From Escherichia phage vB_EcoM_CRJP21: 64,000 nt of DNA. This document shows, piece after piece, positions 1 to 35,471 of this stretch. The position numbers and the translations under genes were made by a program. The stretch lies in sequence record OQ708376.1; one strand, 5' to 3'. The first letter of the stretch is position 1; each line of letters opens with the position of its first letter. The notes beneath the pieces were generated by a model, which was not told the DNA's origin, did not search any database, and worked only from the letters and a program-made list of their open reading frames with translations.

Positions 1-1059
1 AACAGTACACCAGCATCTGCTCGTTACACTTATGTTAAAAAGAATAAGAGTACTGAGATGCTTGTTTTGCGTGATGCTGATATTATACCAATGAAAGAGA
101 ACTATGACGGGACAACATATGAACCTGTTCATTTCTTGCCTATTATTCCATTATCATTGTTTGGTAATGATAGTATGTCAGTTGGTTATAAGAGTACAAT
201 TCTACCACATAAAATTGAAGATATTATTGATAATTGCATTCGTGCTATTGATAAAAAACCACTAAAAGAAATGACCCCATATTATGTTTCATGTGGTGCA
301 AGTGATGTTGTGACTAAGCTTGATGAAAATAAGTATGAATTCTATGGTAAAGCTGAGGTTATTGATGCAAGCACTGTTAAAGTAACAGGCTTACCACCTA
401 ATTACAGTATTGAGAAATTCATCGAAAAACTAATCAAAATGAGTGATGATGGTGAGATTCGTGATTATGACAATGATAGTACTGATGTAATTGATATTAC
501 CATTAAACTTCCACGTGGAACGTCAGCTAAATGGACAGAGATGGATGTTATTGAGTATTTTGGCATTAACAAAAAAATGACTCAACATTTAACTGTTCTA
601 GGTGAAAATGGCAAAGTGAAAGTTTACGATACTACGATGGATTTGATTAAAGACTTCGTTGATTTCCGTTTCAAATATTACATCAAGCGTTATGAAAAGA
701 AACTTGATGATTGTGCTGCTGAAGTTCGTTATAAAATTCTAATTAAAGAATGTTTCGATAATGATATGATTGCTAAGGTAAAAGGATTTGCAAACCGTGC
801 TGAAATGGTTGAATTCGTTAAATCGTTAAATACCGAAATTGAAGCAACGGAAGAGAATATTCAAAGCATTGTAAACTTCCCTTCATATCGCTGGACGCAA
901 GATAATTATCAATCAGTACTACAAGATATTCAAGATAATCTTGATTTGATGGATAAGTACAATGAACTGTTATCTAATCATGACTTAATTTGGGACATTT
1001 ATAAATCTGAACTAAAAGAACTAAGAAAGATTGACTTTACTCCTAAATCAGACAATTGA
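1..1059 (+). CDS. 52: DNA topoisomerase II, GyrA-like subunit (T4 gp52-like); 5'-truncated by window edge
   Basis: Frame 1 is open from nt 1 (no upstream stop), so the CDS starts outside the window. Segment PIIPLSLFGNDSMSVGYKSTILPHKIEDIIDNC matches the GyrA/ParC region around P-LLVNG..GIAVGMAT-IPPHNL-EV; downstream tower-like region follows. Confidence 0.75.
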   Translation, partial: NSTPASARYTYVKKNKSTEMLVLRDADIIPMKENYDGTTYEPVHFLPIIPLSLFGNDSMSVGYKSTILPHKIEDIIDNCIRAIDKKPLKEMTPYYVSCGASDVVTKLDENKYEFYGKAEVIDASTVKVTGLPPNYSIEKFIEKLIKMSDDGEIRDYDNDSTDVIDITIKLPRGTSAKWTEMDVIEYFGINKKMTQHLTVLGENGKVKVYDTTMDLIKDFVDFRFKYYIKRYEKKLDDCAAEVRYKILIKECFDNDMIAKVKGFANRAEMVEFVKSLNTEIEATEENIQSIVNFPSYRWTQDNYQSVLQDIQDNLDLMDKYNELLSNHDLIWDIYKSELKELRKIDFTPKSDN

Positions 1060-1069
1060 TATATTTAAT

Positions 1070-1100
1070 GGAAGACCTTATGGGTCTTCCTTGTCCTTTA
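1070..1100 (+). terminator. Putative intrinsic terminator after the topoisomerase gene
   Basis: Hairpin GGAAGACC-TTATG-GGTCTTCC followed by TTGTCCTTT; the U-tract is weak. Confidence 0.45.
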
Positions 1101-1108
1101 TATAAATA
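1101..1108 (+). promoter_or_regulatory. T4-type late promoter box TATAAATA
   Basis: Exact TATAAATA about 39 nt upstream of the ATG at 1147, consistent with gp55-dependent late promoter geometry in T4. Confidence 0.5.
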
Positions 1109-1146
1109 ATCTATAGATAATGGCAGCTTGGCTATGGAGAATTATA

Positions 1147-3540
1147 ATGACAACTTTTACCCCACGATGGGATATAAAAGCCGATGCTCGATATATACAA
1201 GAAGGACAAGACATTCTTGTGCGTTTGAGTATCAATAAAGAAAGCACAACGGATGATAGCTATGTATTAAATGAAGATGAATACTTAGAAATGATTCTTA
1301 ACATACAATGCTTGGATAGTTCAGGTGCTGTATTTGATCCAGAACCACATTATACTTTTTATGTTGGTAATGACGAAAATACTTTTGTTCCTATTTCAGA
1401 TGGTACAACTGGTAATAAATTAGTAAATGGTAAGCATAAGTGTAAAATCAGCAAAAATGAATTTAACTTATCTGCAAGTACTAATAGTGAAGATGTTTAT
1501 TTTATAAAAATTCATTGTAAAAATGATGGAACCTATAATAATACAGAAATTATAAATTTTTATTTACAAGCAGTAAATGTTATGTATTTTGGAAATATTT
1601 CACCAAGTGGTGTTCTAGGATTAACTGATACATCAATAACATATGATAGTCAAGAAGTTTGGGTTACACCAGGAGTTGAGATTGGTGATGACAAAAAGCT
1701 TTATTGTATTGGTGATGTTGAGTATGGCTCCAACAGTACATTGTTCGTTCAAGGATTTGGAAGAAGACGACCTTTCATTTTGGGTACTGACATGACTACT
1801 GATATTACACCTCGTGTCTTTTTTCCAGCATATCGTTTGATTGACATGGATATTTCTGAAGTTCCAGATAAACATATTACGAATGATTTCGCAGTATTCA
1901 AGCCAGCACAATCAACATGGCCTATTTCTGGTATAAACAAAGAAGTAAAAGTTAATATTCAAAATAGAAATGGTAATTTAATTGACACTGGAATGGTGTT
2001 CAACCCAAATGGGCAATTATTGCAAACATTTTTATATGACTCAGATGCTTGTGATGCATATTTTAAAGTTGAGATTGTTGATATATTAAGTACATACACC
2101 GAAGAAAGTGAAAGGTTTGCTATCAATCAACGATATAAAGCATATCAAATGTGGGTTTGTCCTGAAGACATAGATACTATATATTCTATTTCAGAAAAAC
2201 CACTACCCAATCATTTATATCAATTAAAAGATAATGTTGTGTATCCATACGTAATTAGTGGTGAATACGATAATGGAACAATTAAGCCCGTTTATGATAG
2301 TAGTGATTGGATTGATTTAGGATATTATGACTCTACTCTTGGTGATAATATCATTGGTATGCAAAAAATGTTCAGGGTTTTGATAAACGCAGAAGAAGGT
2401 AATAATATAAACTTTATTACTGATAGTGATTTAGGAACCATACATGTTGGTGAATATTTTGGAGACAGTATATATCCTAAAATTGAAACTGATAGCTCTA
2501 ATCAAGTTTCGTATGTTTTAGATGGTGGTGATGACATTAGAAAGTATGGGATAGATTTGACACCAGATGGATATCTTGTAGGAACTGCATATGCCAAAAG
2601 TATTGATTTTAGTGAAAATGATGATATTAAATTATCGTTTTATGTTAAAGCATTTAGTACTGAAGGTGGTGAAGCAAGAAAAATATTTAACCTTAAGATT
2701 GTAAGAGGATTCGGACAGAATTATTTGAGTGCACATGTATTACCTTCGGTTGCATTTGAGAGAGAATGGTTTAAATGTATAAGTACTTCATCATTCACTA
2801 ATCAACTATTTTTCCGACAATCTGACAATAGATATGGTCTTCAGAAAATACCGAAGATGTTATTGAAAGAAAACTTCCTAAGTCAAACGTATCCATATAC
2901 TAACCTTTCTGATATCAAGAAAGTATTGAGAAATAGTATAATTAACCCAAATGGAACTACTATTCCAAATGGAAAATTTAAAATGGTAATGGGTAATTAT
3001 AAAATAATATCAGCACTTGACAATCAAGGTAACTTACAATATGATCTATTATATAGAGAGGTTTTACCTGAAGGTTCTTTAGTATCTGTATCCAAAAATC
3101 CACGTCAATATACTCAAATCGACAACGGTCAGCTTGGTGAATTATTTGGTTTACGACAAAATATTTTTCAGGCTATTGGTGAAGACACAACCAACTTAGT
3201 AAAAGACCCAACCGATTTACAAAATCGTGGTCTATACGTTGATGCGATACCAAGTATCAGTGATGAAATGCTTGATACGGTCCCAAGATTTATGAATCAC
3301 CCATACATTGAAGATGGTATACAGAAAAAATTCATGCCTATCATTCCAGTTGCATATTGTCAACCAGGCAAAGGTGAAGCATTTTTCAACACTTTACTTC
3401 AGAACAATGAACATGGTACAATGGTAGGTGTAGAGTTCGAAATCACATCGGTTGAATTCGGATACTTTTCGCATGAATCAGTGAATTATGTTTCAGATAC
3501 ATTTTTGATTACATTGCAAAACAATAACATAGGAGGTTAA
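1147..3540 (+). CDS. Large hypothetical protein (about 797 aa), probably a late/structural gene
   Basis: Long ORF (track 1120..3540); start moved to ATG 1147, which has an upstream GGAG. Preceded by a TATAAATA late box. No catalytic motif recognised. Confidence 0.6.
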   Translation: MTTFTPRWDIKADARYIQEGQDILVRLSINKESTTDDSYVLNEDEYLEMILNIQCLDSSGAVFDPEPHYTFYVGNDENTFVPISDGTTGNKLVNGKHKCKISKNEFNLSASTNSEDVYFIKIHCKNDGTYNNTEIINFYLQAVNVMYFGNISPSGVLGLTDTSITYDSQEVWVTPGVEIGDDKKLYCIGDVEYGSNSTLFVQGFGRRRPFILGTDMTTDITPRVFFPAYRLIDMDISEVPDKHITNDFAVFKPAQSTWPISGINKEVKVNIQNRNGNLIDTGMVFNPNGQLLQTFLYDSDACDAYFKVEIVDILSTYTEESERFAINQRYKAYQMWVCPEDIDTIYSISEKPLPNHLYQLKDNVVYPYVISGEYDNGTIKPVYDSSDWIDLGYYDSTLGDNIIGMQKMFRVLINAEEGNNINFITDSDLGTIHVGEYFGDSIYPKIETDSSNQVSYVLDGGDDIRKYGIDLTPDGYLVGTAYAKSIDFSENDDIKLSFYVKAFSTEGGEARKIFNLKIVRGFGQNYLSAHVLPSVAFEREWFKCISTSSFTNQLFFRQSDNRYGLQKIPKMLLKENFLSQTYPYTNLSDIKKVLRNSIINPNGTTIPNGKFKMVMGNYKIISALDNQGNLQYDLLYREVLPEGSLVSVSKNPRQYTQIDNGQLGELFGLRQNIFQAIGEDTTNLVKDPTDLQNRGLYVDAIPSISDEMLDTVPRFMNHPYIEDGIQKKFMPIIPVAYCQPGKGEAFFNTLLQNNEHGTMVGVEFEITSVEFGYFSHESVNYVSDTFLITLQNNNIGG

Positions 3541-3541
3541 T

Positions 3542-3853
3542 ATGTTTAATCCGTTTTTTGACCCGTCTGGAATGACGGAAAAAGAACTACAGTTAAAAAT
3601 TAATGAACAGTCAATGCGTTTAACTTCTGCTCGTGCTGCTGGCCTAAGCGACATGATTATTGGTAATATGCAAACTGTCTTAAATCAATGTTATGCTGAA
3701 CTAGAACTTCGCCAAGGACAAAAAGAAAAAACTGTTTATGACGAAGAAGATCCATGTATCTTCGATATGGATTCATATCTAACTGACAACGAAGAGGCCC
3801 AGAAGAAGAAAAATGAAAGTACAAGGAAACAGATTTATAAGTCCCAATGGTGA
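3542..3853 (+). CDS. Hypothetical protein (103 aa)
   Basis: ORF with strong RBS (TAGGAGG, then ATG); start overlaps the upstream stop (TAATATG). Confidence 0.5.
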   Translation: MFNPFFDPSGMTEKELQLKINEQSMRLTSARAAGLSDMIIGNMQTVLNQCYAELELRQGQKEKTVYDEEDPCIFDMDSYLTDNEEAQKKKNESTRKQIYKSQW

Positions 3854-4331
3854 TGTGAAATGTAATCTTAACGCAGTTGTTTATGCAATCAATTGCGGTG
3901 CAGATATCCAGTACTTACAATTGCAGGAAATTGATGAACCTGAAAGGTTGAAATTCAATGATAACTGTAAAAAATTTGGCTTAGAACAACGTATGCTGGA
4001 TTATACAATTGAGCATGATAAAAATCATGAACTGTGGCGATATGATCCAGTATACGACAATATAAATCTGCGTGACTTTTTCTTACAAAAATGCACATCC
4101 GATGAAGCACGAAAACGTGTTGAGTATGAACTTGATTTATATGAATATTATAATATGACAAAGCTACTAAGATGTATGATATGGCTTGTTGATTATATGG
4201 AAGAAAATGAGATCTTTTGGGGTCTAGGTCGTGGAAGCTCTGTTGCATCATACTGTTTGTTTTTGATTGGACTACATATGGTAGATTCATTGAAGTATGA
4301 ACTTGATGTTAACGAATTTTTGAAATGGTAG
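3813..4331 (+). CDS. DnaE-like (Pol III alpha) fragment; non-catalytic PHP/palm-junction segment (start may be ATG 3753)
   Basis: C-terminal segment RVEYELDLYEYYNMTKLLRCMIWLVDYMEENEIFWGLGRGSSVASYCLFLIGLHMVDSLKYELDVNEFL resembles the DnaE region [55 protein letters not shown] (from memory). The ORF ends just before where the catalytic PDFD aspartates would lie. Confidence 0.45.
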   Translation: MKVQGNRFISPNGDVKCNLNAVVYAINCGADIQYLQLQEIDEPERLKFNDNCKKFGLEQRMLDYTIEHDKNHELWRYDPVYDNINLRDFFLQKCTSDEARKRVEYELDLYEYYNMTKLLRCMIWLVDYMEENEIFWGLGRGSSVASYCLFLIGLHMVDSLKYELDVNEFLKW

Positions 4332-4349
4332 AAAAACATGTGATATAAT
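4320..4349 (+). promoter_or_regulatory. Sigma-70-type early promoter
   Basis: TTGAAA, 18 bp spacer, TGTGATATAATGTTT (extended -10) upstream of the gene at 4395. Confidence 0.5.
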
Positions 4350-4394
4350 GTTTATTGTAGGCTTATATCACACATACAATAAAAGGATTTTGAT

Positions 4395-4739
4395 ATGTCT
4401 AAACATACAACTTATCGTGGTACAACAATTGACATGGATATGCTCAAGTACCAAAATCAACATCAGGTAGCATTAGGTAATGCTAATTTAAACGCACGTG
4501 GTGATAAAATCGGTTCAGGTGGAACAATTATTAAAACTCGTGAAGAGTTGATTCAAGAAAAAGAACGAGAAATGCAAATTCCTGATTATATCCCTGAACA
4601 TCAACTTCATAGTACTGAACATGGTACGGATGAAGTATGGGATGATGAGAGTTTTGAAGTTAAGCCCGAAGAACAAGAAGCTGAGGTTTCTGAAGAGAAG
4701 AAAGCACCACGTCGAGCTAGAACCAAAGATCAGGAGTAA
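4395..4739 (+). CDS. Hypothetical protein (114 aa), acidic C-terminus
   Basis: ORF with RBS AAAGGA upstream of the ATG. Confidence 0.55.
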   Translation: MSKHTTYRGTTIDMDMLKYQNQHQVALGNANLNARGDKIGSGGTIIKTREELIQEKEREMQIPDYIPEHQLHSTEHGTDEVWDDESFEVKPEEQEAEVSEEKKAPRRARTKDQE

Positions 4740-4747
4740 TATATTAA

Positions 4748-5074
4748 ATGACTAATAAAGTAATGACTGCATGTAAAGGTAAAGTACTGGTAACTGAACT
4801 GGAACATGGTGAACGCAAAACAGCAGGTGGTATCGTTTTAACAAACGATGACGGTAAAATTAGAGGTATTCGTTCTCGCTGGGCAAAAGTTTATTCTGTA
4901 GGCGAAGACATTACTGATATTAAAGAAGGTCAATGGATTTTAATTGATCATGGTCGATGGTCAAGAACTATTGAAGTTGATGGTATTGAATTAAACTTGG
5001 TTGATTATCCAGCCGCAGTTAGTTTAGTTTCAGATGAAGATCCACGAACTAAAATGCTAACCTTTGGTCGTTAA
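4748..5074 (+). CDS. GroES-like co-chaperonin (functional analogue of T4 gp31)
   Basis: 108 aa; KTAGGIVLT, VYSVGED and EGQWILIDHG segments match the GroES pattern (K.AGGIVLT, V.AVG.G, GD.V.F). Confidence 0.65.
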   Translation: MTNKVMTACKGKVLVTELEHGERKTAGGIVLTNDDGKIRGIRSRWAKVYSVGEDITDIKEGQWILIDHGRWSRTIEVDGIELNLVDYPAAVSLVSDEDPRTKMLTFGR

Positions 5075-5088
5075 TAAAATATAATTAA

Positions 5089-5120
5089 AGCTCGGATGAA
5101 TATCTGGGCTTTTTATTTGG
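5089..5120 (+). terminator. Weak putative terminator
   Basis: Imperfect hairpin CTCGGAT-GAAT-ATCTGGG followed by CTTTTTATTT. Confidence 0.35.
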
Positions 5121-5127
5121 ACAGATT

Positions 5128-5400
5128 TTGATGATAACTGATGATGGAAAATTTAGTTTCAAGGATGTAACATTAGTATCTAAAAACGGAAGATTCATGT
5201 TTGAAGATAGAAAAAATACCAAATATGTATATGAAGTTTCACATGATATGTTTAAAGTTTTATTAGTTGCATCGGCCCAAGCTGAAAGTACTGGGATTAA
5301 AAATAAGGCAAATTCTTTTAATTTTTTATTAAATCAATTGGAAATGACAGAAGAACTTTTCACGGCTTTATTATATAATTCAGCCGATTGGATTCTATAA
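5128..5400 (+). CDS. Hypothetical protein (90 aa)
   Basis: ORF in the gap between the GroES-like and clamp-loader genes. Confidence 0.45.
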   Translation: MMITDDGKFSFKDVTLVSKNGRFMFEDRKNTKYVYEVSHDMFKVLLVASAQAESTGIKNKANSFNFLLNQLEMTEELFTALLYNSADWIL

Positions 5401-5423: not shown

Positions 5424-6377
5424 ATGACCACACTATGGACTGAAAAATATCGCCCACAATCAATGGAAGATTATGTATCAAAAAATGATGCACTACGCCA
5501 GAAAATGGAAGAATGGATTAAAACTGGTGACATTCCACATATTGGGTTTTTTGGCCCAGCAGGAACTGGTAAAACATCTGCGATCAAAGTACTCATTAAT
5601 GGATTGGTACAGAATGGACACCTTGACCCAAGTGATGTGACTACGCTTAACATGTCGGATGAGGGTATTGATGCAGTTCGTGATAAAATCGATGCCGCAG
5701 CAAAGCTATCATGTTTTGGTAGGTATCGTATCTTTGTTCTTGAAGAAATGGAGCAGATGAACCATAAAGCACAAGGTAGTTTGAAACGTGTAATGGAAGA
5801 CTACCATGAAAACGCTCGCTTTATTTTAACAAGTAACGAACCACATAAAATTCAAAAACCTATCATTTCTCGTGTTCAAGTTATTACAATCGAAAAGCAT
5901 GATATGGAACAATTCATGACTCGAATTTATAATATTCTTCTAGCAGAAGGTGTTGATTTGAGTAGTGATGATAGTGTTGAACAAGTTCAAAAGTATATCA
6001 ATGCTTCCTATCCTGATTTCCGTAAAACACTAAACGTATTGCAAAGTTCAGTTGTTGATGGTAAGCTAGTAAAACTTGAAGATAGTATTGAAAATTCAGC
6101 AGGGTATCGTACTGCAATTGTTGAAGCATTAAAGGCAGGAAACATTCGCCAAATGCGTGAACAAATTGTACAAAATATCCCTGATGATGAGATGGATGCA
6201 TTCTTTTCTTATCTGTATCGTAATGCTGAAATGTTCAGTACTGATGAAATCACACTGATGAAGATTAAAGTTAAAATTCGTGATGCAGTTGTTAAGCAAG
6301 CAACAGTATCAGACCGTGAAATGAATCTTAGTGCTTTACTGTGTGAGATTGACCTAATTTGTTCGGGGAACATGTAA
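5424..6377 (+). CDS. 44: Clamp-loader ATPase subunit (T4 gp44-like, RFC/AAA+ family)
   Basis: Opens MTTLWTEKYRP; Walker A GPAGTGKTS; Walker B-like FVLEE; SRC-like IISRV; start moved to ATG 5424 behind RBS AAGGAA. Confidence 0.85.
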   Translation: MTTLWTEKYRPQSMEDYVSKNDALRQKMEEWIKTGDIPHIGFFGPAGTGKTSAIKVLINGLVQNGHLDPSDVTTLNMSDEGIDAVRDKIDAAAKLSCFGRYRIFVLEEMEQMNHKAQGSLKRVMEDYHENARFILTSNEPHKIQKPIISRVQVITIEKHDMEQFMTRIYNILLAEGVDLSSDDSVEQVQKYINASYPDFRKTLNVLQSSVVDGKLVKLEDSIENSAGYRTAIVEALKAGNIRQMREQIVQNIPDDEMDAFFSYLYRNAEMFSTDEITLMKIKVKIRDAVVKQATVSDREMNLSALLCEIDLICSGNM

Positions 6378-7003
6378 TGAAACCACGTTGTATAGTTTTT
6401 GATTGTGATGAAGTTCTATTGGACCATATGGGTATGCTTTCTGAGTTTGTAAAACAAACTTATAATATCACACCATCAACACCATACCCATTAGAATATG
6501 ATTTATCAGACTGGTTGGGTGTTCCTCAACCTGAAGTTAAAAAGATTCTTGAACAGTTCAACCAACAATCATATTTGTTTGGGTTGTTAAAGCCAGTCGA
6601 ACCAAATACAGTTGATATTGTACAAGAGCTACGTGATCGTTTTCATAAAGAAAAATTCGTAGTACTCACAAAATGTGGTAAAAAAGGCTATGGTGAAGTT
6701 TTACGAAATGTAAATCTAATGCGTGAATTTGGTGAAAACTGCTTTGATGAGATTATTATCATAGAAATGAATGAATCAAAGAAAGAAGCATTAGAGGATT
6801 TACAAACACGATATGATGTAAAACTAATGATTGATGATTATATCAATAATATTGAAACTGCTATGGGTCTTGGTATTCCATCAGTTATGATGGGATGTTC
6901 TCATAATACTATGTATAAGAATCATAGTGGTTTTGAATATATCGAAAACTGGACAGAACTTAGACTGAAAATTTATTCAGTACTAGGTAAATATTACAAA
7001 TAA
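6377..7003 (+). CDS. HAD-superfamily 5'(3')-deoxyribonucleotidase-like phosphatase
   Basis: N-terminal IVFDCDEVLLD (HAD motif I, DxDx[TV]) and C-terminal KLMIDDY (motif IV DD); start is coupled to the gp44-like stop (TAATG). Confidence 0.6.
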   Translation: MKPRCIVFDCDEVLLDHMGMLSEFVKQTYNITPSTPYPLEYDLSDWLGVPQPEVKKILEQFNQQSYLFGLLKPVEPNTVDIVQELRDRFHKEKFVVLTKCGKKGYGEVLRNVNLMREFGENCFDEIIIIEMNESKKEALEDLQTRYDVKLMIDDYINNIETAMGLGIPSVMMGCSHNTMYKNHSGFEYIENWTELRLKIYSVLGKYYK

Positions 7004-10468: not shown

Positions 10469-11605
10469 ATGTCCGAGAAAGAAATCAATCCTAAAAAAGC
10501 ATCCACCGCAGCTAAATCAGCAAAACGCACTACTAAAACTGCGTCTAAAGGTCATACAATTGATGCAAGTGATATTTTTAACCAAACTACAAAATCACTA
10601 CCAGTACTGAAAGATGTTAAGGGAAATACTATGTCTCTAACAGTTCAAAACATCAATACTGTTGGTACAACTGCTGGTGCTGCTGTTGGGCGTTTGGCTG
10701 ATGAAATTATGTCTAAAGTTAATGTAACGGATGACAATACCGAGTTTGGTAAATCAATCACCACAATTCTTACGTTGACTCGTGCAGTTGATATTGACAG
10801 TCTTCAAGAAGATAAATCAATTGTTGGTCGTATTAAGAAATTCTTTGTTAATGCTCAACAGAAAGTAGGTGATCAGTACAAAAACAGTAAAGAGCAAATT
10901 GACGAAATTATGAAAACTCTTCAAACTGGTATTAATCGCCAGCACGGAGAATGTGAATGGCTTGATAAAGCATATAATGAAAACAAAGAATATTTGTTTG
11001 AATTACGTGATACATTAGTTGGTTTAGAAGAAGTAACTAAAACACAAGATGCATTATTATTAGAAATGCAAGCAGACAAAAATGTAGACTCTTTTGCTAT
11101 TCAAGAGCAAAAGATGATTTGTGAAGCACTTTCTAAACAAGAAGATAAGATTCGTCGTCTTATCATGATGTGCGAGCTAAGTGGTCCACGTTTGATGAGT
11201 ATGAAAAAAGTAAACTTGAACACTGTTTCTAAGTTTGAAGATTTAAAATCTGTTGTTATTCCAGCATGGAAGTCTCAATTGGCTGAACAGTTAATTTCCG
11301 AGCGTCAACGTAAGGATAATGAACTAGGCAATCTAATTGATAATGAGACAAACCGTCTTTTGGAAACTAACTCTAAAATGGTTGCAGCAAATATGTTGGA
11401 CGCAGCAAAGGCAAACAACCGTGGTATTGTGGATATTAAAACCTTGCGTAATGTACATAAAACGATGATTGACAGTATTGAAGCAGTTATTGAAGAAGAG
11501 AAAAAAGGCAAATTGGAACGTGAACGTGCTAAACAGGAAATTGCACAACTTTCCTATGAACTGGAAGACACTCTTCGTGAAATTGCCGAAAAAGCTAACA
11601 AGTAA
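10469..11605 (+). CDS. Hypothetical coiled-coil protein (378 aa) with Lys/Ala/Thr-rich N-terminus
   Basis: ORF with RBS AACGAGGAA; low-complexity N-terminal region; no family assigned. Confidence 0.6.
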   Translation: MSEKEINPKKASTAAKSAKRTTKTASKGHTIDASDIFNQTTKSLPVLKDVKGNTMSLTVQNINTVGTTAGAAVGRLADEIMSKVNVTDDNTEFGKSITTILTLTRAVDIDSLQEDKSIVGRIKKFFVNAQQKVGDQYKNSKEQIDEIMKTLQTGINRQHGECEWLDKAYNENKEYLFELRDTLVGLEEVTKTQDALLLEMQADKNVDSFAIQEQKMICEALSKQEDKIRRLIMMCELSGPRLMSMKKVNLNTVSKFEDLKSVVIPAWKSQLAEQLISERQRKDNELGNLIDNETNRLLETNSKMVAANMLDAAKANNRGIVDIKTLRNVHKTMIDSIEAVIEEEKKGKLERERAKQEIAQLSYELEDTLREIAEKANK

Positions 11606-11684: not shown

Positions 11685-12374
11685 ATGAAACGTCGTCATA
11701 TTAGTGTTGATATTGAAGCTCTTGGAACACCTGAACTTTCCGGTTATGATATTATTATCCCAAATTACGCAGCAGTAGTAGTTCCAAGTAAACCTGAAAA
11801 TGACATTCGTCAGTTCTTATATATTAAATTACCATACCAGGATCAAGTTGCTACTGGTTTAAAATCAGACGCAGGTGCAATGGATTTTTGGATGAATACA
11901 TGTCAGAAAGAATACCCTAATGCATATTATGAAGTTGCCAGTACTATGAAACTCAAAGCACCTGAACTGTATGGACCGAATGGTCAATCACGACGATTTT
12001 TTGCATACAGTAGTATTGTTGATTTCTGGAAAGAATTACGTTACAATGATTATGGTGAAGAAGTTCCTCATTCAGTATGGGGCAACGGATGTAACTTCGA
12101 TTGTAGTATTTTACAAGCAAACCATTTAAAACTAATGAACGCTGGTGAGTTGTGGAAGTATGATGCACCTGAAAATGCACGCACATTGAAACGTTTATTG
12201 AATGAAGAAGCTCGTATTGAAATGGATGAAATCGTTTCGGTACAGTTGGATAAATTTATCACATATGCAAATACGTGTGGGATTAATGGGTTGGAGTTAC
12301 ATCACCCACTGTTTGATGCAGCACGTGAAGCAATCCAGATTTCATTCTGTCTAAACAAGCTTAAAATGGATTAA
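11685..12374 (+). CDS. dexA: DnaQ-like 3'-5' exonuclease (T4 DexA-like)
   Basis: 229 aa; N-terminal ISVDIEALGT (Exo I DxE motif) and C-terminal HHPLFDAAREAI (Exo III-like H..D); size and motifs resemble T4 exonuclease A as I recall it. Confidence 0.55.
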   Translation: MKRRHISVDIEALGTPELSGYDIIIPNYAAVVVPSKPENDIRQFLYIKLPYQDQVATGLKSDAGAMDFWMNTCQKEYPNAYYEVASTMKLKAPELYGPNGQSRRFFAYSSIVDFWKELRYNDYGEEVPHSVWGNGCNFDCSILQANHLKLMNAGELWKYDAPENARTLKRLLNEEARIEMDEIVSVQLDKFITYANTCGINGLELHHPLFDAAREAIQISFCLNKLKMD

Positions 12375-34244: not shown

Positions 34245-34502
<258 letters not shown>

Positions 34503-34510
34503 GAATTTAA

Positions 34511-34912
34511 ATGAAAAAGAATGACTTGATCAAAATGCTTCAAGAAATTGACGGCAATCCAGAGATTGTTATTTGGAATGGATACGTCGATGATTATATG
34601 AACATCGAAAAAGGCTTGACTAAAATCACTCTAGTCAAAGAAACCGAACAGTTTCTTCAGGGTGCATTAGAGCACGAATGGTGTGAACGTAACAATACAT
34701 TCGACATTCCAGAAGACCAACGAACCAAGATTGCAGAACGTGCTAAAGAACTGCATAAGAAACGCGAATACGATTTCCAGAACCCATATGTCACTGAAGA
34801 CGAATTCAATCGCTGGTACGGTAAAAAGAAATTGACAAAGTATGTCCTTTCACCTAAACTACGTGGTAAGACTTCACTTGGTGTATTCAACGCCGCAGAC
34901 TTAAACTACTAG
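34511..34912 (+). CDS. Hypothetical protein (133 aa); paralog of 34925..35140 at the N-terminus
   Basis: N-terminal MKKNDLIKMLQEIDGNPEIVIW matches MKAKDLIKILQNNPEADILIH in the next gene. Confidence 0.5.
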   Translation: MKKNDLIKMLQEIDGNPEIVIWNGYVDDYMNIEKGLTKITLVKETEQFLQGALEHEWCERNNTFDIPEDQRTKIAERAKELHKKREYDFQNPYVTEDEFNRWYGKKKLTKYVLSPKLRGKTSLGVFNAADLNY

Positions 34913-34921
34913 CGGGTATTA

Positions 34922-35471
<550 letters not shown>

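Follow-up and report, generated by a model that had tools for sequence, protein, structure and literature searches.

An open reading frame (ORF) of 172 amino acids in Escherichia phage vB_EcoM_CRJP21 is, almost certainly, the N-terminal unit (N-unit) of a known split minimal DNA polymerase III (Pol III) alpha system, whose other half (C-unit) is encoded by a separate gene. The two proteins probably form an active enzyme in phage DNA synthesis, a reading to which we assign a probability of about 0.7. The stretch of DNA analyzed (the window) comprises 64,000 nucleotides of sequence record OQ708376.1. The 2.2 kb around the ORF (window positions 3000–5200) were 100% identical to Escherichia phages IA-38, G17 and Sharanji, 99.5–99.9% identical to PBECO4 and its relatives (99.9% for PBECO4 itself) and 93.9% identical to 121Q. 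The phage is a Rak2-like jumbo myovirus of ~350 kb that belongs to the genus Asteriusvirus (PBECO4/G17/121Q group), and genes near the ORF, which code for a topoisomerase II medium subunit, an 806-residue virion protein, a GroES/gp31-like co-chaperonin and a gp44-like clamp loader, are consistent with this identity.

The split system is already known, computationally only. Iyer et al. (2021, Viruses 13:63; PMC7824862) described a phage-specific "split minimal DNA Pol III alpha" in group 2.2 jumbo phages, in which an N-terminal nucleoside triphosphate-binding protein and a C-terminal Mg2+/template-binding protein are encoded by distant genes beside a family B polymerase. It was suggested that the pieces reconstitute an enzyme, and the minimal Pol III alpha was argued to model an ancestral form of the bacterial replicase. 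The system described here is the same thing with no difference in kind, as the Rak2-like group of the window belongs to that set. What we add are unsplit forms of 336–375 residues, a (predicted) fold-level confirmation of both halves, ratios of nonsynonymous to synonymous substitution rates (dN/dS), the gene neighborhoods of each half and a 141-kb phage that contains both. Among individual genome reports, the CBB paper listed the ortholog as a 172-residue "truncated" Pol III alpha, together with a gp43 homolog, and the Atu_ph07 paper noted that a truncated Pol III alpha is conserved in most Rak2-like phages, while the PA5oct omics paper makes no mention of the N-unit or C-unit genes.

Identification of the N-unit

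The ORF begins with an ATG at position 3813, and its homologs start with the same MKVQ. An earlier sequence-only reading of the window, made without database searches, had set the start at 3753, which is 60 nt too far to the left. The protein matched Pfam PF07733 (DNA_pol3_alpha) over residues 92–171, corresponding to profile positions 16–95 of 260 (E 1.9e-9, 37.9 bits; the curated cut-off is 23.9 bits), and PHROG 11127 from end to end (residues 1–171 against profile positions 1–171 of 171, E 3e-87). It was 100% identical at the amino acid level to PBECO4 ACQ29_gp449, 121Q gp56 and the G17 copy. A family profile built from an alignment of 34 diverse members and searched against PDB at E<=1 gave nine matches, all of them Pol III alpha chains (E 0.012–0.12), in which residues 100–172 were aligned with residues 320–392 of E. 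coli DnaE and 383–454 of the Taq enzyme. In a local hmmsearch against two sequences, E. coli DnaE and the DnaE of Bacillus phage FADO, the same profile matched FADO residues 350–425 with E 3.2e-15.

The sequence-only reading had proposed that this stand-alone protein resembles DnaE and lacks the catalytic aspartates, and both the Pfam match above the cut-off and the PDB profile matches bear this out. It had also placed the end of the ORF just before the catalytic strand, correctly so: when projected on E. coli DnaE, whose landmarks were verified in the sequence (GRGS 361–364; D401, D403 and D555; RPG 639; KSH 758), the ORF ends at residue ~392, and D401 and D403 lie 9–11 residues further on. 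The Pol-beta-like palm with its Gly-Ser (GRGS) loop is present in the ORF. This loop is the Gly-Ser motif of Pol-beta-like nucleotidyltransferases, and in DnaE it adjoins the triphosphate of the incoming nucleotide. The catalytic carboxylates (D401, D403 and D555 in E. coli) are not in the polypeptide and are borne by the partner as D18, D20 and D82. The matched region is inside the palm and not, as had been thought, where PHP and palm meet, and no similarity to a PHP domain was detected in the 172-residue protein by the Pfam scan.

Further DnaE fragments had been considered possible elsewhere in the window. However, a six-frame scan with N-unit and C-unit profiles returned a single match, at 3783–4328, which is the N-unit, and no C-unit was found in the window at E<=10. 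Pfam and PHROG scans likewise revealed no polymerase among the ten larger neighboring ORFs.

Conservation of the N-unit

A large protein collection contained 176 N-unit homologs, the complete ones being ~169–187 residues long. By tblastn, full-length copies with 77–100% identity were found in all Rak2-like phages, and diverged copies in PA5oct/Paride, XacN1, Atu_ph07, RsoM2USA and Stenotrophomonas CM1. The homologs in XacN1, Paride and Atu_ph07 are also small genes (182, 169 and 177 residues, respectively) that end at the equivalent aligned position, and in the alignment of 34 diverse members all sequences terminate within a few residues of "EFLK". The best-conserved stretch is WG-GRGSSV-SYCL-L-G-H---S-KY-LD--EFLK, in which G137, G139, R140, G141, S142 and S143 do not vary, whereas the conservation of W136 is 90% or higher. 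When the N-unit gene was compared with that of 121Q, 21 synonymous and no nonsynonymous differences were found; dN/dS was 0.014 against Turkey3 and 0.063 against RaK2 (dS saturated). The N-unit gene is thus under strong purifying selection. It is not a pseudogene, and it should not be taken as a host-takeover factor.

The predicted catalytic partner

In PBECO4, the N-unit gene (gp449, 239915..240433) is accompanied by a second small "DNA polymerase" gene, gp488 (270767..271405), which is located ~31 kb away on the same strand and codes for a protein of ~212 residues (PHROG 11778). The C-unit is also present in genomes that are 100% identical to the window over positions 3000–5200 (IA-38, 34287–34922; G17, 140985–141620). 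In IA-38, the start of its gene is 30,973 nt upstream of that of the N-unit, or ~27 kb before the first base of the window.

The gp488 sequence contains, in order, MQDSTDSKHYRKARTDIDIDFKDSK...HNSGVHF...YQKVDILSQ...MIRPGK...FKKPHAYAYSLM, and its N-terminal part reads ...KARTDIDIDF. Among 25 diverse homologs, D16, D18, I19, D20, H48, G51, K80, D82, R149, P150, K152, K187, H190, Y194 and Q201 are invariant. With these motifs, the C-unit is predicted to have the DxD strand that binds metal, the third aspartate and fingers that are much reduced. Its profile matched E. coli DnaE in collinear blocks at residues 401–422 (DFDVDF), 594–641 (ending in RPG) and 743–766 (KSHSAAYAL), plus a KxD block, and FADO DnaE at 433–459 (DIDIDF) and 558–590 (KLDILG); these searches were made with filters off, and each block is weak.

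Annotation of the two genes is uneven. N-unit orthologs are labeled "DNA polymerase III alpha subunit", "DNA polymerase" or "hypothetical protein", whereas the partner is a "putative membrane protein" in GAP32, the Erwinia pEa_SNUABM phages and Klebsiella phage Muenster and a "hypothetical protein" in most records, and in WPEC3 a "helicase" is among the features under the C-unit match. These partner labels are misannotations of a predicted polymerase catalytic core.

Co-occurrence and natural fusion of the two halves

The two halves occur together. The numbers of phage records in which tblastn found the N-unit and the C-unit were 33 and 33 for Escherichia phages, 11 and 11 for Pseudomonas, 8 and 8 for both Salmonella and Erwinia, 4 and 4 for both Xanthomonas and Yersinia, and 10 and 11 for Klebsiella. 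In eight pairs of N-unit and C-unit clusters, the longest source contigs were equal in size. Alishewanella phage vB_AspM_Slickus01 (OQ508957.1, 141 kb) came up among the C-unit matches alone, and a scan of its whole genome then revealed an N-unit of ~170 residues with the usual end point (79796..80308, E 2.9e-17), ~11 kb from the C-unit (68346..68957). Because this 141-kb phage has both halves, the split minimal polymerase is not confined to jumbo genomes. Both genes are annotated as "hypothetical protein" in Slickus01, and a clamp-loader gene lies ~1 kb from its C-unit.

When the C-unit profile was used for an exhaustive search, 517 representative clusters were obtained (E<=0.001). Of the 150 representatives that were listed, two proteins, P0296 (375 residues, C-unit match from residue 190) and P0384 (336 residues, from residue 109), have an N-unit in front of the C-unit, and both are genuine ORFs on metagenomic contigs. 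In P0296, the N-unit profile matched residues 15–182 (E 1e-41) and the C-unit profile residues 192–372 (E 1.1e-54); in P0384, the corresponding matches were at residues 23–124 (E 3.1e-9) and 125–334 (E 1.9e-36). PHROGs 11127 and 11778 matched both proteins in N-to-C order. In addition, PF07733 runs unbroken over the junction of P0296 (residues 97–207 against profile positions 12–121, E 4.8e-16). The fused form reads ...GVGRGSSSASLLLFLLKIHLIDPIKYKLNIKEFIK-DNKEGIYNIA-DFDIDTK....

P0296, which keeps the full N-terminal region of the N-unit, is encoded at 1066..2193 of ENA ERZ28653423 scaffold_211374 (2415 bp). Its gene is followed by a small opposite-strand ORF, as is the C-unit gene of the split phages. 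P0384 is found on JGI contig Ga0669126_0033275 (7992 bp; region 1516..4181) and has DYDIEL in place of DIDIDF; its gene overlaps by 4 nt the stop of a preceding gene for a 552-residue PF03090 "Replicase". The contig also codes for a PG_binding_1 protein and a methyltransferase. It may be a small replicon in which the minimal enzyme is the only polymerase.

We aligned the junction region of E. coli DnaE, FADO DnaE, the two fused proteins and the window N-unit followed by the PBECO4 C-unit. The break falls in the loop FERFLN/PERVSMP/DFDVDF (slashes mark the limits of the loop), and no structural element is lost between "...EFLK" and "DIDIDF".

Relationship to other C-family polymerases

The bacterial C-family enzymes (E. 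coli DnaE, Taq Pol III alpha and the PolC of Gram-positive bacteria) share with the phage pair the homologous palm, the GRGS loop, the DxD motif, the third aspartate and the finger motifs RPG and KSHxxAY. They differ in that the phage pair has no PHP, thumb, beta-clamp-binding/HhH, OB or tau-binding domains and only a reduced finger region, in that it amounts to 384 residues in two chains versus 1160 residues in one (E. coli DnaE), and in that the phage chain is broken in the loop between the post-GRGS helix and the DxD strand. Full-length DnaE proteins of phages (Bacillus phage FADO, Streptomyces phages and group 3.2 jumbo phages) were detected by tblastn with the N-unit at E 3e-4 to 9e-4. 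These are host-like single-chain enzymes (FADO DnaE, the only one checked, has 1120 residues), and they carry an N-terminal PHP domain (PMC7824862).

The split DnaE of cyanobacteria (DnaE-n/DnaE-c) is likewise a dnaE-type polymerase made from two distant genes. In cyanobacteria, each half bears a split-intein fragment (one of about 100 residues, the other of about 35), and protein trans-splicing ligates the two at a site in the finger region. In contrast, the phage N-unit ends 1–3 residues after the DnaE-like "FL" and the C-unit starts only 5–15 residues before DIDID, so there is no room for intein fragments. An intein-split DnaE, for which the sequence-only reading had recommended a check, was rejected, as no extra sequence flanks the break on either side.

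Gene neighborhoods of the two halves

Each half has its own conserved replisome neighborhood. The string N-unit, ~114-residue ORF, GroES-like gene, sometimes an extra ORF, and clamp loader is found in the window, Paride, XacN1 and Atu_ph07. The C-unit is followed by a small opposite-strand ORF, a ~300-residue ORF, a primase and a DnaB-like helicase in PBECO4 (gp488–484), Paride (0017–0021), Atu_ph07 (gp074–070) and Slickus01. The split polymerase is encoded alongside a polymerase of family B and a T4-like replisome, as judged from the clamp loader in the window and from the annotation of PBECO4, which includes a DNA polymerase of 1001 residues (gp512), primase gp485, helicase-like ATPase gp484 and SSB gp498.

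The ~114-residue ORF next to the N-unit was considered as a candidate for the missing catalytic half, a possibility suggested by "TIDMDM" near its N-terminus (VDMD in Paride, VDFD in XacN1 and VDVE in Atu_ph07). It is in the reading frame of the N-unit in all four phages. This candidate was rejected, as the true C-unit, with the canonical DIDIDF and all other motifs, is encoded elsewhere and the family has no polymerase similarity in Pfam or PHROG. Three in-frame stops (TAG 4329, TGA 4341 and TAA 4380) between the two ORFs in the window also speak against this candidate, and readthrough from the N-unit does not fit with them. The family (PHROG 14844) has the motifs RGxx[IV]D[MFV][DE] and VA[LV]GN..N.NA[RK]GD, the second of which is missing in XacN1, and an acidic/basic low-complexity tail. 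In all four clades, the GroES/gp31-like gene is found after the N-unit and before the clamp loader, and a second GroES-like gene is annotated in PBECO4 (gp507, 286924..287259).

Upstream, the 41-nt overlap of the N-unit start with the 103-residue ORF is also annotated in 121Q, Turkey3 and RaK2 despite nucleotide identities of 77–96%, which suggests a conserved translational arrangement. It should also be noted that PBECO4 (NC_027364.1) encodes, ~4 kb from the C-unit, a 272-residue DnaQ/RNase T-type exonuclease (gp495, 275741..276559; PF00929, E 6.7e-15), annotated as "DNA polymerase exonuclease subunit". This protein could be the proofreader of the minimal polymerase. According to the Atu_ph07 paper, most Rak2-like phages have a conserved epsilon-like gene.

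Possible function and alternative explanations

The following mechanism can be proposed. The N-terminal, helical portion of the Pol-beta-like palm would come from the N-unit, as would the invariant GRGS loop, and the C-unit would contribute the DxD strand, the third aspartate and the reduced fingers. Non-covalent association of the two proteins would then rebuild one active site, with the break in the loop that corresponds to N393–P400 of E. coli DnaE. We infer that such an enzyme would take part in DNA synthesis by the phage, next to its gp43-like polymerase of family B. Since the pair has no thumb and no clamp-binding, OB or tau-binding domain, it is more likely to serve in primer extension or repair than in bulk processive synthesis, and the gene neighborhoods, which appear to link the pair to priming functions, favor primer extension or hand-off. 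As the PHP domain is absent as well, processive genome replication by the minimal enzyme alone is unlikely.

Several observations weigh against the proposed mechanism. The C-unit profile had no HMMER match in PDB at E<=1, and the sole Pfam match of the C-unit was below threshold (PF17657, E 0.045), so the homology of this half is drawn from its motifs, its predicted fold and the fused forms. The fused forms were only two among the 150 representatives listed. The genes for the two halves are ~31 kb apart (182 kb in Atu_ph07) and belong to different gene modules, so co-expression cannot be taken for granted. With no thumb and with most DNA-binding domains missing, template-directed DNA synthesis is not assured. 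Finally, neither a biochemical or genetic test of association or activity nor an experimental follow-up after 2021 was found in full-text searches of an open-access library.

A fuller version of the proposal would hold that the two chains, 384 residues in total, form an active templated polymerase that serves in primer extension or hand-off in a phage replisome with two polymerases, much like B. subtilis DnaE beside PolC or eukaryotic Pol alpha, that assembly of its active site couples the primase-helicase and clamp-loader modules, and that the 336-residue form is the smallest self-contained C-family polymerase and possibly the only polymerase of a small replicon. Taken as a whole, this version is rather unlikely. 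If the pair is an active enzyme, its core would be far smaller than that of any other C-family polymerase and would offer a tractable model of minimal Pol III-type catalysis, and a large phage clade would run family B and C-family polymerases side by side.

Among the alternatives, one is that the halves do assemble and the product is not a templated DNA polymerase, being instead a terminal transferase, a primer-modifying enzyme or a nucleotide-signal synthase. The small size of the pair and its missing thumb, HhH, OB and clamp-binding domains and most of the fingers fit such an activity, and the Pol-beta-fold superfamily contains many non-polymerase nucleotidyltransferases. We nevertheless regard it as unlikely: the RPG and KxHAxxY finger motifs, which contact the dNTP and the template in DnaE, are invariant, the neighbors are replication genes (primase, DnaB-like helicase and clamp loader), and one fused form is encoded directly 3' of a PF03090 Replicase gene.

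It is also possible, with still smaller odds, that the N-unit works independently of the C-unit as a non-catalytic accessory of the clamp-loader/chaperonin module, for example as a nucleotide-sensing or scaffolding subunit. The gene string from N-unit to clamp loader, kept in Rak2-like phages, Paride, XacN1 and Atu_ph07, would agree with this, as would the location of the C-unit elsewhere, by the primase and helicase. However, the most conserved residues of the N-unit form the GRGS active-site loop, for which no role is apparent in the absence of the DxD strand, co-occurrence of the halves is strict in the genomes checked, and in two proteins they are a single chain.

The sequence-only reading had viewed the ORF as a decaying remnant of a full-length dnaE, or as a truncated derivative that might poison host replisome assembly by mimicking the DnaE surface in a PHP/epsilon contact, and this is very improbable: although the ORF is without the catalytic aspartates, spans less than 10% of full-length DnaE and was called "truncated" in the CBB paper, a remnant is unsupported because length and C-terminal end point are fixed across distant phages and numerous metagenomic clusters and dN/dS is 0–0.07, and an inhibitor is opposed by the missing PHP domain (hence no epsilon-binding surface), by a co-occurring phage partner that bears all the absent catalytic motifs, by the natural fusions in two metagenomic proteins and by retention of the protein in phages of Pseudomonas, Xanthomonas, Agrobacterium and Alishewanella, hosts with differing DnaE. 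An active two-protein enzyme remains the reading that we prefer.

Other features of the region

The sequence-only reading had noted a promoter directly after the ORF. A sigma-70-like consensus, TTGAAA-18-TG-TATAAT, is indeed present, overlaps the stop codon of the N-unit and lies ahead of the next gene; the number of such sites in the region was not above that in shuffled sequences, so the site stands as a consensus match only. The features of the window are listed in Table 1.

Table 1. Features located in the window (positions refer to the 64,000-nt stretch; E values as obtained in the Pfam and PHROG scans)
Feature	Position	Strand	Basis or remark
Topoisomerase II medium subunit	58..1059		
103-residue ORF, PHROG 15348, function unknown	3542..3853	+	Upstream; overlaps N-unit start by 41 nt
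N-terminal (NTP-binding) unit of split minimal Pol III alpha, 172 residues	3813..4331	+	ORF list; PHROG 11127; Pfam PF07733
Palm-homologous segment, residues 92–171 (E. coli DnaE ~320–392, just before the catalytic strand)	4086..4325	+	Pfam; PDB profile match; local hmmsearch against E. coli and phage FADO DnaE; junction alignment
W-G-L-G-R-G-S-S motif, residues 136–143	4218..4241	+	Alignment of 34 members; matches E. coli GRGS 361–364
Sigma-70-like promoter consensus, extended -10	4320..4349	+	Consensus scan, 11/12 matches
114-residue ORF, PHROG 14844, function unknown	4395..4739	+	Next gene 3' of N-unit; conserved
GroES/gp31-like co-chaperonin	4748..5074	+	Pfam Cpn10, E 2.2e-5; PHROG 931, E 1.5e-20
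Clamp-loader large subunit (gp44/RFC-like AAA+)	5424..6377	+	PHROG 168, E 1.1e-78; Pfam DNA_pol3_delta2, AAA; synteny
NT5C-like 5'-deoxynucleotidase, E 9.1e-9	6377..7003	+	Just 3' of clamp loader
TelA-like "toxic anion resistance" protein, PF05816, E 2.2e-37	10469..11605	+	3' of clamp loader
DEDD 3'-5' exonuclease, Rv2179c type, E 2.2e-8	11685..12374	+	3' of clamp loader

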